Position numbers and translations under genes: made by a program. 32,000 nt of DNA from assembly GCF_001457595.1 (NCBI RefSeq), contig NZ_LN831039.1, positions 3,990,001 through 4,022,000 on the forward strand. The letters are read 5' to 3'. Origin of the DNA: Mycolicibacterium smegmatis (lineage in GTDB: Bacteria; Actinomycetota; Actinomycetes; Mycobacteriales; Mycobacteriaceae). Positions 26,055 through 30,154 of this stretch are shown piece by piece. Position 1 is the first letter of the stretch. Every line of letters begins with the position of its first letter. Below the pieces are notes generated by a model. It saw only the letters and a list, made by a program, of their open reading frames with translations, was not told the origin of the DNA and did no database searches.

Positions 26055-26528
26055 TCACAATTCCCTGGCCGGTGAGACGTCCCACCGCGCCCGGCCCACG
26101 AACGGACGCAGGACGATCAGGTACACCGCGCCGACCGCGACCGGCGCGGCAAGCGGCACCCACGGCAACGTCAGCTGCCAGAACCCGACCAGCATCGCTG
26201 CCGCGGTGAATCCCAACGCGCACAACATCATCGGGCGCGTCGTGGTGACCACCGACGTTCCCGCCGCGTGGCGGACCGCCAGGTACACCGCGGCCGACAG
26301 GCCTGCCAGCGCGGCGTAGAGCACGTCGGGTTCCGACAGCGCGAGAGCGGCCGCGGCCGCCCACACCGCGACGGTCGACGCCGGTCGCCACGCGGGCCCC
26401 ACCGCCACCGCGGCGGCCGAGATCGCCGCGGCCACCAGTGCCGGACCGTCGGCGGGCGCGGCCACCGCCGCGGCCATGACCAGGCCGAGGGACGTCGAGA
26501 ACACAAGCGGCGCGGGCTGAGTGCGCAT
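26055..26528 (-). CDS. Polytopic membrane protein, 157 aa, unknown family (last gene of the MoxR cassette)
   Basis: ATG 26528 shares one nt with the DUF58 stop (TGATG). Ala/Val/Leu-rich with 4-5 predicted TM segments. Confidence 0.7.
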   Translation of the reverse strand: MRTQPAPLVFSTSLGLVMAAAVAAPADGPALVAAAISAAAVAVGPAWRPASTVAVWAAAAALALSEPDVLYAALAGLSAAVYLAVRHAAGTSVVTTTRPMMLCALGFTAAAMLVGFWQLTLPWVPLAAPVAVGAVYLIVLRPFVGRARWDVSPAREL

Positions 26529-27775
26529 CACCGCGTCCTTCGTCTGTGCCGGTCCGGGATCAACCGCATGACATCCTGCAGCGGGATGTCGCCGCGCCAG
26601 TGCACGACGTCGATGCCGATCGTGCTCATGTCGCGGTACATCGCCGAGCGATGCAGCGCCCACAGTCGCGGGATCAGCGGGTCCAGGCCGTCCGGGTTGT
26701 CGAACGGCGCTCCCTCAAGGACGTCGACGGCCACCACGGCGTGCCCGTGTTTGGCCAGCTCGATCAGCGCGAACGCGAACTCGGTGTTCAGCATCGTGGA
26801 GAACGCCACCACGATGGCTCCCGGTGGCACCGCGGCGCGCGGCGCGAGCGTGCCGGTGGTTGTCTCGAACCCGCCGCCCGCCCCGAGGATCGCGTCGAGC
26901 ACGCGGTAGAACTGCCTGCGCCCGATGTCGAGCCCGAGCCACCGCGGTTGCCTGCCGCCGAGCGCCACGATGCCGGCCCGGTCGCCGCTGCGCAGCGCGC
27001 TCTGCACCACCTGCGCCGCGCCGCGTGCGGTGCGCTCGGTGGCCTGTGTGGCCGGGCCGGGCGCCTGGTCGTGGGTGTCGATGAGCACCACGACGTCGCC
27101 CCCGCGATCGGTGAGCCGCTCGGTGACGTGCAGTCGTCCGCGGCGGGCACTCACCGGCCAGTTGACGGTGCGCAGATGATCGCCCGGCACATAGGGCCGC
27201 ACGTCGGCGTACTCCACCCCGGGTCCGGTGTGGCGGGTCAGGTGGGTGCCGAGCCGGTCGGGCAGTTCGGCGCGCGGCATCGGGGTGAGATGTGGTGCGG
27301 CCAGCGGGAACACGTAGAGCTCCGCGGCCTCGACGGTGCCCGTGCCGGTCACGAGTCCACCCGGCGCGGTCACCGTGACGTGCGCCCGCAGCGGGTAGCG
27401 GCCCCAGCGCGACGCGTTCGCGCGCACCCTCTGCTCGGGACCCGCGCGGTCGCCCGGCTCGAGCCGCAAACCCTCGACGCTGTCCACCCGCAGCCGGGCA
27501 TCGGCGCCGGCACTGCTGCTCACCCGCACCGACAATTCGGCGCTCTCGTTCTCGAAACACCGCACGGTGGCGGGCTCTGCGCCGACCTCGACCGAGACGC
27601 GAGGCCGCTGCCAGTAGGCCGAACACAGCACACCGAGCAGTGGCGAGGCGAAGATGACCAATTGCCAACGGAATCCGAGCACCGCGATCAACATCGCACC
27701 TGCCGCGGCGGTGGCCACGGACTTAGTCAGAGGCGACGCGCCCCAACGCAGCGGCACGTGCACACCGACGGTCAT
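26528..27775 (-). CDS. DUF58 (vWA-like) protein with N-terminal TM hairpin, 415 aa
   Basis: VRPYVPGDHLRTVNWPVSARRGRLHV is the DUF58 signature. ATG 27775 overlaps the moxR stop (ATGA). Confidence 0.85.
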   Translation of the reverse strand: MTVGVHVPLRWGASPLTKSVATAAAGAMLIAVLGFRWQLVIFASPLLGVLCSAYWQRPRVSVEVGAEPATVRCFENESAELSVRVSSSAGADARLRVDSVEGLRLEPGDRAGPEQRVRANASRWGRYPLRAHVTVTAPGGLVTGTGTVEAAELYVFPLAAPHLTPMPRAELPDRLGTHLTRHTGPGVEYADVRPYVPGDHLRTVNWPVSARRGRLHVTERLTDRGGDVVVLIDTHDQAPGPATQATERTARGAAQVVQSALRSGDRAGIVALGGRQPRWLGLDIGRRQFYRVLDAILGAGGGFETTTGTLAPRAAVPPGAIVVAFSTMLNTEFAFALIELAKHGHAVVAVDVLEGAPFDNPDGLDPLIPRLWALHRSAMYRDMSTIGIDVVHWRGDIPLQDVMRLIPDRHRRRTR

Positions 27776-28728
27776 GGCAGGTTGCCCGCACGGGGCACGG
27801 GGAGCCGGCGCAGCAGTTCGTTCATGACGTCGGCACCGTGGATGCTGCGCACCCACATCTCCGGGCGCAGGCTGATGCGGTGCGCCATCGCCGCGACCGC
27901 GAGTGTCTTGACGTCCTCGGGGATGACGAAGTCCCGCCCGAGCAGCAAGGCCCTGGCCCTCGCGAGTTGCACGAGGTCGAGTTCGGCGCGGGGGCTGGCG
28001 CCGACCGCAACCTGCGGGTGGTGGCGCGTCGCGGCCGCGAGCGCCACGACGTAGCGCAGCACGTCGTCGTGCACGCTGACCTGTTCGACGGCCTCGCGCA
28101 TCGCCAGAAAGCGCGGACCGTCGACCACCTCGGCGACGCCCGCCTCGGCAGACCCGCGATCCAGGCGGCGGCGCAGCATGGCCGTCTCGTCCTGTTCGGA
28201 CAGGTACTTCAGTTCCAGGCGCACCGAGAACCGGTCGAGTTGGGCCTCGGGCAGCGGATAGGTGCCCTCGTACTCGATCGGGTTGTCGGTGGCCAGGACG
28301 ATGAACGGCGCGGGCAGGCGGTGCGTCTGGCCGTCGATGCTGACCTGCCCCTCGGCCATGGCCTCCAGCAGCGCGGCCTGCGTCTTGGGCGGGGTCCGGT
28401 TGATCTCGTCGGCCAGCAGCAGGTTGGTGAAGATCGGGCCGGGCCGGAACTCGAACCGACCGGACTGCATGTCGTACACCGTCGAGCCGAGCAGGTCGGC
28501 GGGCAGCAGATCCGGGGTGAACTGGACCCGGGTGAACTTCAAACCCAGCGCGGCGGCGAAGGACCGGGCGATGAGCGTCTTGCCGAGGCCGGGCAGGTCC
28601 TCGATGAGGACGTGTCCGCGCGCCAGCAGCGTCGTCAGGATGAGGGTGAGCGCGTCACGCTTGCCCACCACCGCCTTCTCGATCTCGTCGAGCACCGATC
28701 TGGCGGCTGCCGCTGTGGCCACGTCCAC
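27772..28728 (-). CDS. MoxR-family AAA+ ATPase, 318 aa
   Basis: Walker A DLPGLGKT, Walker B LLADEINR, VLATDNPIEYEGTYPLPEAQLDRF. GTG 28728 (or 28722) was chosen over the Arg-rich 28968 extension. Confidence 0.9.
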   Translation of the reverse strand: MDVATAAAARSVLDEIEKAVVGKRDALTLILTTLLARGHVLIEDLPGLGKTLIARSFAAALGLKFTRVQFTPDLLPADLLGSTVYDMQSGRFEFRPGPIFTNLLLADEINRTPPKTQAALLEAMAEGQVSIDGQTHRLPAPFIVLATDNPIEYEGTYPLPEAQLDRFSVRLELKYLSEQDETAMLRRRLDRGSAEAGVAEVVDGPRFLAMREAVEQVSVHDDVLRYVVALAAATRHHPQVAVGASPRAELDLVQLARARALLLGRDFVIPEDVKTLAVAAMAHRISLRPEMWVRSIHGADVMNELLRRLPVPRAGNLP

Positions 28729-29228
28729 GTTCGCCTGACTGGTCGCAGCTGCTCCAATCGTTGCAGGATCTCCGCGAGCACCGCGCGGCCCGGGCCTGGT
28801 CCGTCGTCCCGTGCGGAGGCGACGTTGTTGGGATCCACCCACTGCCACAACCGTTCTCCGAACAGCATCCGACCGGTGGCCTGGAATGCCGACTGGTCGC
28901 CGACCAGTCGTTGTCCGCTGGCCGCGGCGAACTCCCTGGCCAACCGTGGCCGCAGATGGCGGTCCCACTGGCTGCGAGTGGAATCGGCTCGGCTGATGAG
29001 GATCTCGGTCTCGGACTGCCAGCGCGCCAGCAGTTCGGCCGCGTCCTCCGACGCCGTGCTGCGCGCATCGTGGACTGGATCTTCGCGCAATGCCAGGCGC
29101 ACCGAGACCAGCAGCACCGCGAGCGCAGCGCCGGTGGCCCAGCCGATCATGCTGCGGCCCGGCACCGCGAGCGCTGCCAGTTCGACGAACACCACCAACG
29201 CAAAGCCCGCGACCACGAACCGTTTCAT
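28635..29228 (-). CDS. Two-TM protein, 197 aa, unknown family
   Basis: ATG 29228 overlaps the upstream stop (ATGA). Starts [22 protein letters not shown] and has a second TM. There is no in-frame stop until 28635, so the 3' end overlaps moxR by 94 nt. Confidence 0.6.
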   Translation of the reverse strand: MKRFVVAGFALVVFVELAALAVPGRSMIGWATGAALAVLLVSVRLALREDPVHDARSTASEDAAELLARWQSETEILISRADSTRSQWDRHLRPRLAREFAAASGQRLVGDQSAFQATGRMLFGERLWQWVDPNNVASARDDGPGPGRAVLAEILQRLEQLRPVRRTWTWPQRQPPDRCSTRSRRRWWASVTRSPSS

Positions 29229-30154
29229 ACGAGGCTCCGCAGATCGGCGTGTACGCGCTGCAGCGCGGCGACCGCGGCCGCGCGATGCGTCTCGGTCATC
29301 CGGTGCGGGCTGAACCGCGCCTCGGCGAACAGCTCGACGAGTTCGGTTGCGCTGTCGGCATTCAGCGCGTGATGCTCGACCGCACGGGCGAGCACCTCCG
29401 ACGGTGTGTCGGATTCCTGCGGGACCGCTTCCGGTGCGTACGCGAGGCCCTGTTCCATGGCCGCATAGCACGCGATGATCGCGGTTCTGGGGTCGCGGCT
29501 GAGATCCCCGATCTCGGCGAGCCCGAGTTCGGTTGCGCGGACCAGCTTCTCCGGGTTTCTGGGGTGAACCGGCAGGACCGGCCAGGTGTCGTCGGCCCGG
29601 TGCAGGTGGGCCGCGGCGCGGCGCCTGGCGCGCAGGATGGTCCCGATCGCGATGAGCAGCAACATGATCACCCCGGCCACCGCGAGCAGGCGGAACGCGG
29701 TGGCGTCCCCAGGATCATCGGGTACCCGGGCCTCGCCCGGCGCGCCCGGGCTTTCACGCCCCGATCCGTCCTGGGGCGGGGGCAGTTCAGACGTGTCGGT
29801 CAACCGGGAGATCAGGACCGCGACCGACAGCCAGCACATCAGGACCGCCAGGCCCAGCAGTACCCATCGCCACCGCAGACGCGCCCGTGGCCCCCGTAGA
29901 CCGGCCTGGGGGATGTCGTCGCCGGCACCGGATACGCGGGGCTTGCGCGGTGCGGTGAAAATCGCGAACGCAAAGCCTGCCAACCCCACCGTGAGAAGCG
30001 CCGCGACGGCCACGAACGTGGCCGGAGAATCGGTGGGTGCCTGCGCCTGGGCGCGGCTGCCGCCGGGGACATGCCCGCGCAGTGCGACGACAGCGACCAC
30101 CATGAGCACGAGCACTGTGGCCACGCGCCCCGCGGCATTCTGCAAACCGGGCAT
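29225..30154 (-). CDS. Four-TM protein with C-terminal DUF4129 domain, 309 aa
   Basis: C-terminal [12 protein letters not shown]...TPSEVL...[17 protein letters not shown] pattern is typical of DUF4129. First gene of the cassette. Confidence 0.75.

Follow-up and report, generated by a model that had tools for sequence, protein, structure and literature searches.

The window examined here is the whole 32,000-nucleotide stretch of Mycolicibacterium smegmatis DNA shown above (contig NZ_LN831039.1, positions 3,990,001 to 4,022,000 of the forward strand), and the subject is a cassette of five consecutive minus-strand genes within it, called g1 to g5 in the order in which they are read. They encode a DUF4129 membrane protein (g1), a small membrane protein (g2), a MoxR-type AAA+ ATPase (g3), a DUF58 protein (g4) and a polytopic membrane protein (g5), and the operon carries the locus tags MSMEG_3865-3868. 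An initial annotation of the same DNA had set out these genes with their order, coordinates and families, and the list stands: all of the open reading frames (ORFs) are present, and both Pfam and hydropathy agree with the assignments (Table 1). All five predicted proteins are exact matches to M. smegmatis entries. The GC content stays at ~0.70 throughout the window and does not shift at the cassette. The genes probably constitute a self-contained, translationally coupled module that builds a membrane-anchored MoxR AAA+ machine and has no role in cobalt chelation, even though cobN lies nearby. Among the known MoxR/DUF58 systems the cassette is an undescribed architectural variant.

Table 1. Coordinates, strand and properties of the cassette genes and of the features around them in the window (aa, amino acids; TM, transmembrane).
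Feature	Position	Strand	Properties
g1	30154-29225	-	309 aa; DUF4129 (PF13559), E 3.3e-14 at residues 229-299; four hydrophobic segments
g2	29228-28635	-	197 aa in the window; N-terminal TM hairpin and conserved helical domain of ~100 aa
g3	28728-27772	-	318 aa from GTG 28728; AAA_3 (PF07726), E 4.4e-64; AAA_lid_2 (PF17863), E 1.2e-20
g4	27775-26528	-	415 aa; DUF58 (PF01882), E 1.4e-16; N-terminal TM hairpin
g5	26528-26055	-	157 aa; Ala-rich polytopic membrane protein (hydropathy)
Strain-specific codon	28743..28745	-	CGA in the window; TGA (stop codon of g2) in most M. smegmatis strains
35-codon ORF, MVAFGVFVAVVAGLVAVTGRPYRRSWHERFGEMQL	25809..25916	-	single TM segment; Shine-Dalgarno-like GAAAGGA; inside the 303-nt spacer between g5 and cobN
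cobN	22116..25751	-	large subunit of the aerobic cobaltochelatase, MSMEG_3864; TIGR02257, 1129 bits against a cut-off of 822
TauD/TfdA-family dioxygenase gene	30165..31169	+	PF02668, E 7.2e-54; divergent from g1

The ATPase encoded by g3, which some records name MoxR3, is a MoxR-proper (MRP) member of the AAA+ family and is neither CobS nor ChlI. Its best relative in the PDB is 2R44 (E 8.8e-74), with RavA at 2.6e-7 and BchI at 6.7e-6, and its scores with the models of the chelatase subunits are low, being 11.8 bits against a cut-off of 558.55 for CobS (TIGR01650), 27.9 against 466.95 for BchI (TIGR02030) and 65.3 against 499.55 for BchD (TIGR02031). The Walker motifs DLPGLGKT and LLADEINR, already picked out in the initial annotation, are present, and within them GLGKT and DEINR are invariant in 82 orthologues; identity across the Mycobacteriaceae loci is 82-92%. 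The original annotation of strain mc2155 holds, over window positions 26528-28746 (minus strand), a 739-aa MoxR-DUF58 fusion (ABK73214) together with a 66-aa AAA_3 fragment (AFP40235). Later records have separate proteins of 316-324 aa and 415 aa for this interval, and the fusion and fragment records look like errors of the old sequence or annotation.

What, then, does the ATPase work with? The DUF58 gene is placed immediately after the MoxR gene by an ATGA overlap, and this adjacency is kept in all loci examined. The g4 protein scores 60.8 bits with the DUF58 model against a Pfam gathering cut-off of 23.4. In its AlphaFold2 (AF2) model, which has a mean predicted local distance difference test score (pLDDT) of 61.4, the TM hairpin and a beta-sandwich at about residues 62-156 are confident, with block pLDDT of 72-91, and residues 160-319, where strands and helices alternate, have pLDDT below 50. 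A Foldseek comparison of the protein with the von Willebrand factor A (vWA) domains of CobT and ChlD had been suggested earlier; a Foldseek search with the model returned Ig-like domains only (such as titin and filamin), and a profile search of PDB sequences with g4 gave no relative. For these reasons the vWA-like nature of the DUF58 domain rests on prior knowledge. The predicted metal ion-dependent adhesion site (MIDAS) is degenerate by motif alignment, reading DTHDQ in g4 and DT[YH]xQ, DAxxD or DTFVD in its relatives, and the DxSxS metal-site motif is not present after the first strand of the g4 DUF58 domain.

The remaining three proteins give the cassette its particular character. UniRef labels g1 as a protein with a 'protein-glutamine gamma-glutamyltransferase-like C-terminal domain', and across 75 orthologues its DUF4129 part is strongly conserved and its TM part weakly, a pattern that extends to g4 in that the DUF58 and DUF4129 domains are strongly conserved across the Mycobacteriaceae loci and the TM regions weakly. 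Neither g1 nor g5 has a Pfam match to a transglutaminase core or to TgpA_N, and a VWA match is absent from every cassette protein and flanking gene; indeed no cobS, cobT, chlI, chlD, vWA or transglutaminase gene occurs among the window ORFs scanned, which bears out the earlier statements that the window lacks a MIDAS-type vWA or transglutaminase partner as well as cobS and cobT. The g2 protein has no match in Pfam, NCBIfam or PDB profile searches and belongs to a small family, with 195 matches among 1.84 billion cluster representatives in a profile search and 214 proteins, none with a Pfam domain, in a word-index search. Its invariant residues are W70, D89, R93, P94, G124 and W128, and its AF2 model, a TM hairpin followed by a helical domain, has a mean pLDDT of 69.7 (72-86 over residues 81-160) and no PDB fold match at E 0.001 or better. 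Weak collinear matches of 11-20 bits to DUF7269 (PF23933), all below the cut-off of 29.1, recur in 13 of the 48 orthologues and in 5 of the 10 distant relatives; they span the TM hairpin and the first helix and are a lead, short of a family assignment. The g5 protein matches no family in Pfam and NCBIfam scans and has G15, R48, Y82, R86, W123 and P125 invariant in mycobacteria. All five cassette proteins show conserved columns and the genes stand in one order at all of the related loci examined, which is more than chance.

With respect to topology, hydropathy gives four TM segments for g1, a hairpin each for g2 and g4, and several segments for g5. Because K/R-rich loops precede each of the soluble domains, following the positive-inside pattern, these domains are all predicted to be cytoplasmic and so to lie on the same side as MoxR. 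We infer from this that the soluble parts of the cassette proteins face the cytoplasm. The sole sigma-70-like promoter match in the region (TTGACC-17-CAGAAT, window positions 30137-30165, minus strand) overlaps the annotated g1 ATG at 30154, and g1 might therefore be leaderless, with an mRNA starting at a GTG near 30127.

The manner in which the genes are joined is part of the argument for a single module, and here one detail of the window has to be set aside. The junctions had been described as ATGA, a 94-nt overlap, ATGA and TGATG. The three short ones are as described; the 94-nt overlap, and with it the 197-aa length of g2, does not hold as a trait of the system. Among M. smegmatis contigs a 161-aa g2 that ends in LQRLEQL is found in 244 (protein form P0016 in 229 and P0015 in 15), and the 197-aa form (P0014) in seven. 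The difference comes down to the strain-specific codon listed in Table 1. The junction reads AGCTGCGACC in the window and AGCTGTGACC in strain L002, where the g2 stop codon TGA overlaps the GTG start of MoxR. The same T>C change at 28745 converts the GTG start of the 324-aa MoxR (28746-28744) to GCG, so that with a single substitution both the g2 stop and this MoxR start are lost. The 197-aa g2 thereby extends 36 codons into moxR in a different frame, and MoxR must begin at the next GTG, at 28728. The ancestral arrangement has a g2 of 161 aa ending at 28746 and a MoxR of 324 aa starting at 28746, and it is this MoxR, beginning MTSQANVDV, that is annotated in most M. smegmatis strains; g2 is likewise 158-166 aa long in 80 other species. 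The 94-nt overlap between g2 and moxR is a strain variant and not a feature of the system.

Across the loci, 4-nt overlaps are found at 76 of 78 g1/g2, 56 of 80 g2/g3, 30 of 81 g3/g4 and 37 of 75 g4/g5 junctions, counts which are upper estimates because the start codon chosen was the one nearest to the upstream stop, a choice that favours tight junctions. The other junctions within the cassette are mostly gaps of at most 18 nt.

The evidence that carries the idea of a module comes from the conservation of the cassette as a unit. A scan with the DUF58 alignment, taking one genome per species, yielded 80 Mycobacteriaceae loci at 62-77% identity; these are the 80 most similar to the M. smegmatis protein among at least 554 detected, a sample which over-represents the cob-linked arrangement described below if anything. 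At these loci g1 to g4 occur in order wherever the contig covers them, and g5 falls below the tblastn threshold in about a dozen. Further afield, nine distant actinobacterial contigs, from a Pseudonocardia metagenome-assembled genome (MAG) and metagenomes, carry DUF4129, g2, MoxR and DUF58 genes followed by one for a membrane protein of 160-195 aa. The distant g2 relatives are 20-30% identical to that of M. smegmatis, and in the contigs tested (L087-L094) the distant g1 to g4 match the mycobacterial hidden Markov models (HMMs), with E down to 1e-155. The fifth proteins were also considered as homologues of mycobacterial g5, given the same position and similar size; this found no support, as an HMM search with the mycobacterial g5 found nothing among them and hhalign gave a probability of 2.9%. 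Across the mycobacteria sampled, the cassette is an autonomous, vertically inherited and conserved unit.

How does this unit relate to cobN? The gene itself is genuine, as the initial annotation had it, although the cassette does not lie directly upstream: the spacer of 303 nt between g5 and cobN holds the 35-codon ORF of Table 1. That ORF is called as a gene in strain L002 and is found 62-76% identical and in the same place in L005-L008 and L058, among them locus L007, which is without cobN. It matches CcmD at sub-threshold level only and is not part of the cassette, just as cobN and the TauD gene are neighbours and not components of it. No simple terminator-like site is seen in the spacer, which folds slightly better than shuffled sequence (z = -2.07). 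A cobalamin riboswitch or other RNA element before cobN was considered and rejected: there is no Rfam match anywhere in the window at gathering thresholds, and in the spacer nothing relevant at E up to 10. Further from the cassette, window positions 5637-13637 hold unrelated genes for a copper amine oxidase, a carboxylesterase, a luciferase-like monooxygenase, and a sulfonate/NMT1-type ABC binding protein and permease.

The frequency with which the cassette adjoins cobN in the family, a profile that the initial annotation had called for, speaks against a functional link: cobN lies within 10 kb of the cassette in 11 of the 80 species, and the cassette occupies at least four unrelated contexts. 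These contexts were defined by clustering the flanking ORFs together with a Pfam scan of representatives, four of the 80 loci remaining unplaced. Context A, comprising 13 of the 80 species plus M. smegmatis, has cobIJ-cobH-cobG divergent from the cassette and cobN usually after it. Context B, which counts M. kansasii, M. gastri and M. persicum among its 36 species, is marked upstream by amine oxidase, APH, TetR and SDR genes and downstream by a convergent nuo operon. Context C1 (13 species) places IlvD, PNPOx, MFS and L,D-transpeptidase genes upstream and M13 peptidase and MmpL genes downstream, and context C2 (14 species) has Kup and methyltransferase genes upstream with DUF899 or MFS downstream. 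In total 67 of the 80 species carry the cassette outside the cob context, and unrelated loci in most relatives were what the initial annotation had named as an outcome that would refute its idea. With the chelatase scores low as well, the proposed association with CobN is not supported.

Even within context A the arrangement is fluid. M. smegmatis and M. wolinskyi have the TauD gene on the upstream side of the cassette, four species lack it, and in five others it lies on the opposite strand between the cassette and cobN; in loci L007 (11237-12400) and L022 (6908-10764) cobG-cobH is found upstream and cobN is missing after the cassette. A second DUF4129-family ORF is seen downstream of the cassette in L022. 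Counted from published locus tags, cobN and cobG have no gene between them in M. abscessus, one in M. tuberculosis, two in M. kansasii and six in M. smegmatis. Since the number of genes in this gap varies between species, the cassette and the TauD gene look like independent occupants of it. On balance, and taken jointly with the module reading, the adjacency to cobN is best explained by insertion of the module into the variable cobG-cobN gap in one group of fast growers.

Away from cobN, the closest named counterpart is in M. tuberculosis. The M. kansasii locus has the same five genes, for proteins of 319, 160, 325, 425 and 152 aa, flanked by amine oxidase, APH and TetR genes. We take these slow-grower flanks, with nuo downstream, to match the Rv3145-Rv3170 region of M. 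tuberculosis. On names and synteny, the cassette would then be the M. smegmatis orthologue of the moxR3 operon, Rv3166c-Rv3162c, a correspondence that together with the module reading we consider somewhat better than an even bet. As judged via the M. kansasii locus, the M. tuberculosis operon agrees in its five genes, in their order and roughly in their sizes; where it differs is in location, the slow growers having it in the TetR/SDR to nuo region and M. smegmatis in the cobG-cobN gap. Of the M. tuberculosis genes, moxR3 itself is Rv3164c, which adjoins Rv3165c, and Rv3162c encodes an integral membrane protein. Both Rv3164c and Rv3165c are listed among the genes induced on re-aeration, thioridazine mildly induces Rv3162c, and some studies have probed Rv3160c-Rv3161c and Rv3162c jointly as one unit that responds to lipid; further entries for moxR3 come from a DarG pull-down list, a host quantitative trait locus (QTL) transposon sequencing table and a glycoproteome. 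No paper on the function of the cassette was found in the literature, where its M. tuberculosis genes occur only in tables of expression, transposon sequencing QTL, pull-down and glycoproteome data, and MSMEG_3865-3868 are mentioned in no paper found. The earlier view that the function is undescribed is thus upheld, and a 2025 review similarly finds nothing to clarify the role of the DUF58 protein or its relation to MoxR. M. smegmatis has at least one further MoxR/DUF58 pair, MSMEG_6612 and MSMEG_6610, in the SigF regulon.

In comparison with known systems the cassette shares the core pair and differs in what surrounds it. The Bacteroides BatA-E and mycobacterial moxR1 (Rv1479-Rv1481) operons, of the MRP type, likewise have an AAA_3-type MoxR gene followed by a DUF58 gene, with a function that is unknown or chaperone-like. 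Unlike them, the cassette has no separate vWA protein of the BatA/BatB kind and no tetratricopeptide repeat protein; it has instead the DUF4129 protein and two small membrane proteins that belong to no family, and the MIDAS of its DUF58 protein is degenerate. TgpA-type triads and the Bifidobacterium PFNA cluster, described in a 2025 review as MoxR-DUF58-transglutaminase, also combine MoxR and DUF58 with a membrane protein that bears DUF4129. In contrast to the TgpA triads, g1 is without the transglutaminase core and TgpA_N, and the cassette has no kinase gene and no fibronectin type III (FN3) gene. The CobN-CobS-CobT and ChlH-ChlI-ChlD chelatases, too, have an AAA+ protein from the broad clade to which g3 belongs, and in M. 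smegmatis g3 and its putatively vWA-like partner are encoded next to cobN; yet the cassette ATPase scores far below the cut-offs of the chelatase families, its partner is membrane-anchored and without MIDAS, and the linkage to cobN is not conserved.

How might such a machine operate? In the mechanism that we propose, the DUF58 protein would draw a cytoplasmic MoxR hexamer to the cytoplasmic side of the membrane, this recruiter consisting of a TM hairpin, an Ig-like sandwich and a vWA-like domain without a MIDAS site. The targets or intermediaries of MoxR would then be the cytoplasmic domains of g1 (DUF4129) and g2, the polytopic g5 would complete a membrane sub-complex, and ATP hydrolysis would serve to remodel, assemble or release a client in the membrane or envelope. 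A physical complex of the cassette proteins and a remodelling role for it are what we infer from gene content and predicted topology. The initial annotation had offered an uncharacterised membrane chaperone or remodelling machine as the first of two options, and this fits all of the findings and stays the best reading.

Several points weigh against this picture of a self-contained module with no part in cobalt chelation. The vWA fold of g4 is putative, given the pLDDT below 50 at residues 160-319 and the lack of a PDB sequence relative, the orthology to Rv3166c-Rv3162c is based on names and synteny, and the degree of tight coupling is subject to the upper-estimate character of the junction counts. 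A published table gives no ChlI-type gene for M. smegmatis. There is, in addition, a second cob-adjacent cassette: in the Pseudonocardia MAG (L087:444-10246) a distance of 2.5 kb separates it from cobG (which scores above the TIGR02435 cut-off), cobIJ and cobM, and the arrangement is unlike that of M. smegmatis. None of the other eight distant cassettes has a cob gene close by. As the chance of any locus lying within 10 kb of a cob gene is ~1.5% by a rough, post hoc estimate, two cob-adjacent contexts in about a dozen independent ones exceeds chance and is nominally unusual, a comparison that is itself post hoc and assumes both cases to be independent.

The explanation that survives best next to the proposed machine is a chaperone for envelope enzymes, in which the module would control the export, folding or activation of extracytoplasmic cell-wall enzymes. 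There is a precedent in that MoxR1 assists the Tat (twin-arginine translocation) export of RipA in M. tuberculosis. The upstream neighbours of the cassette point the same way in several independent contexts: immediately upstream and on the same strand lie an L,D-transpeptidase (YkuD) gene in 13 species (e.g. L072:6266-7480), an HtrA-like Trypsin-PDZ protease gene at L088:5438-6029, L090:7166-8083 and L096:7135-8052, an NlpC/P60 hydrolase gene at L095:871-1974 and a PAP2 phosphatase gene at L087. Moreover, g1 bears the C-terminal domain of the TgpA-type membrane transglutaminases and, according to the 2025 review, the moxR1 operon adjoins ripA/ripB. What counts against such a role is that its basis is gene neighbourhood, that over half of the contexts have no such neighbour, and that any effect on the envelope would be indirect, because the soluble domains of the cassette are all predicted to be cytoplasmic. 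A chaperone for envelope enzymes is conceivable but on the unlikely side.

A related and quite unlikely possibility is that the cassette is a relative of TgpA that has no transglutaminase and is split into separate proteins, with ATP-driven changes crossing the membrane to regulate extracytoplasmic cell-wall enzymes. In that case the DUF4129 domain of g1 and the helical domain of g2 would be the handles pulled by MoxR and DUF58, the enzymes regulated would be the L,D-transpeptidase, the HtrA-like protease and NlpC/P60, which are neighbours of the cassette in several lineages, and g2 would found a family of its own, perhaps with a link to the DUF7269 proteins. The distant g5-like proteins L091:4968-5552 and L094:3354-3842 match TgpA_N at E 0.1-0.2 only, and these very weak matches hint that the cassette might correspond to a TgpA in separate parts that lacks the transglutaminase core.

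Could the cassette instead serve a respiratory enzyme? The NorQ/NorD, CoxD/CoxE and RavA/ViaA pairs are precedents within the MoxR family for the assembly of metal cofactors and enzymes, and by analogy the cassette would provide a metal cofactor, or another assembly step, to a membrane respiratory enzyme. The induction of moxR3 and Rv3165c on re-aeration in M. tuberculosis agrees with this, as does the fact that in about 36 species of slow growers the nuo operon is a neighbour of the cassette. The nuo operon nevertheless runs convergently to the cassette instead of in the same direction, and none of the other three contexts contains it; the DUF58 protein has no MIDAS metal site, and no metalloenzyme is a constant neighbour. 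An assembly factor of this type is accordingly improbable.

The second option of the initial annotation was a non-canonical motor linked to CobN or to cobalt handling. In this reading, for the M. smegmatis group at least, MoxR and DUF58 would replace CobS/CobT (or ChlI/ChlD) and either drive the insertion of cobalt by CobN or deal with cobalt at the membrane. The comparison does not support it, and it is very improbable. MoxR, CobS and ChlI do belong to one broad AAA+ clade. It is also the case that in M. smegmatis and 13 of the 80 species the cassette sits inside the cob cluster, with cobG-cobH-cobIJ on one side and cobN on the other, that the spacer before cobN in the window has no terminator-like site, that the Pseudonocardia MAG has its own cob neighbours, and that M. 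smegmatis lacks a ChlI-type gene in the published table. Against this, the cassette is elsewhere in the great majority of species (67 of 80), a cob gene is near just one of nine distant cassettes, and even in the cob context an opposite-strand TauD gene intervenes in five species and cobN is missing in L007 and L022. The ATPase is far under the CobS, BchI and BchD cut-offs and the DUF58 protein is without the MIDAS serines. Both M. tuberculosis and M. kansasii carry the cassette and cobN at unlinked loci; in M. tuberculosis cobN is Rv2062c, far from moxR3 (Rv3164c), and the ChlI-type Rv2850c is reported in an operon with cobO and cobB. A literature search for MSMEG_2615, a possible M. smegmatis counterpart of Rv2850c, returned nothing.

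An anti-phage or conflict system of the MoxR-vWA ternary type is exceedingly improbable: the bpMoxR Pfam model does match g3 at 34 bits (cut-off 27) and, according to the review, a conflict role has been proposed for MoxR-vWA systems of Actinobacteria, but vWA and beta-propeller partners were not found in the cassette, PADLOC was negative apart from P-loop-level matches to IetA (E 5e-4), and vertical conservation in essentially every sampled species with host-like GC is unlike the patchy occurrence of defence islands.

The significance of a proposed membrane-anchored MoxR machine of this kind lies in the breadth of the group to which it belongs, since few bacterial AAA+ systems of unknown function are as widespread as the MoxR/DUF58 operons. 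The cassette is kept in all of the mycobacteria sampled, close relatives of pathogens included, with two of its five proteins lacking a family assignment. For the annotation of these genomes it follows that adjacency to cobN should not serve to label the cassette genes as related to cobalamin or cobalt. Because M. smegmatis is genetically tractable, MSMEG_3865-3868 offer a practical setting in which to hunt for the client and phenotype of the system.

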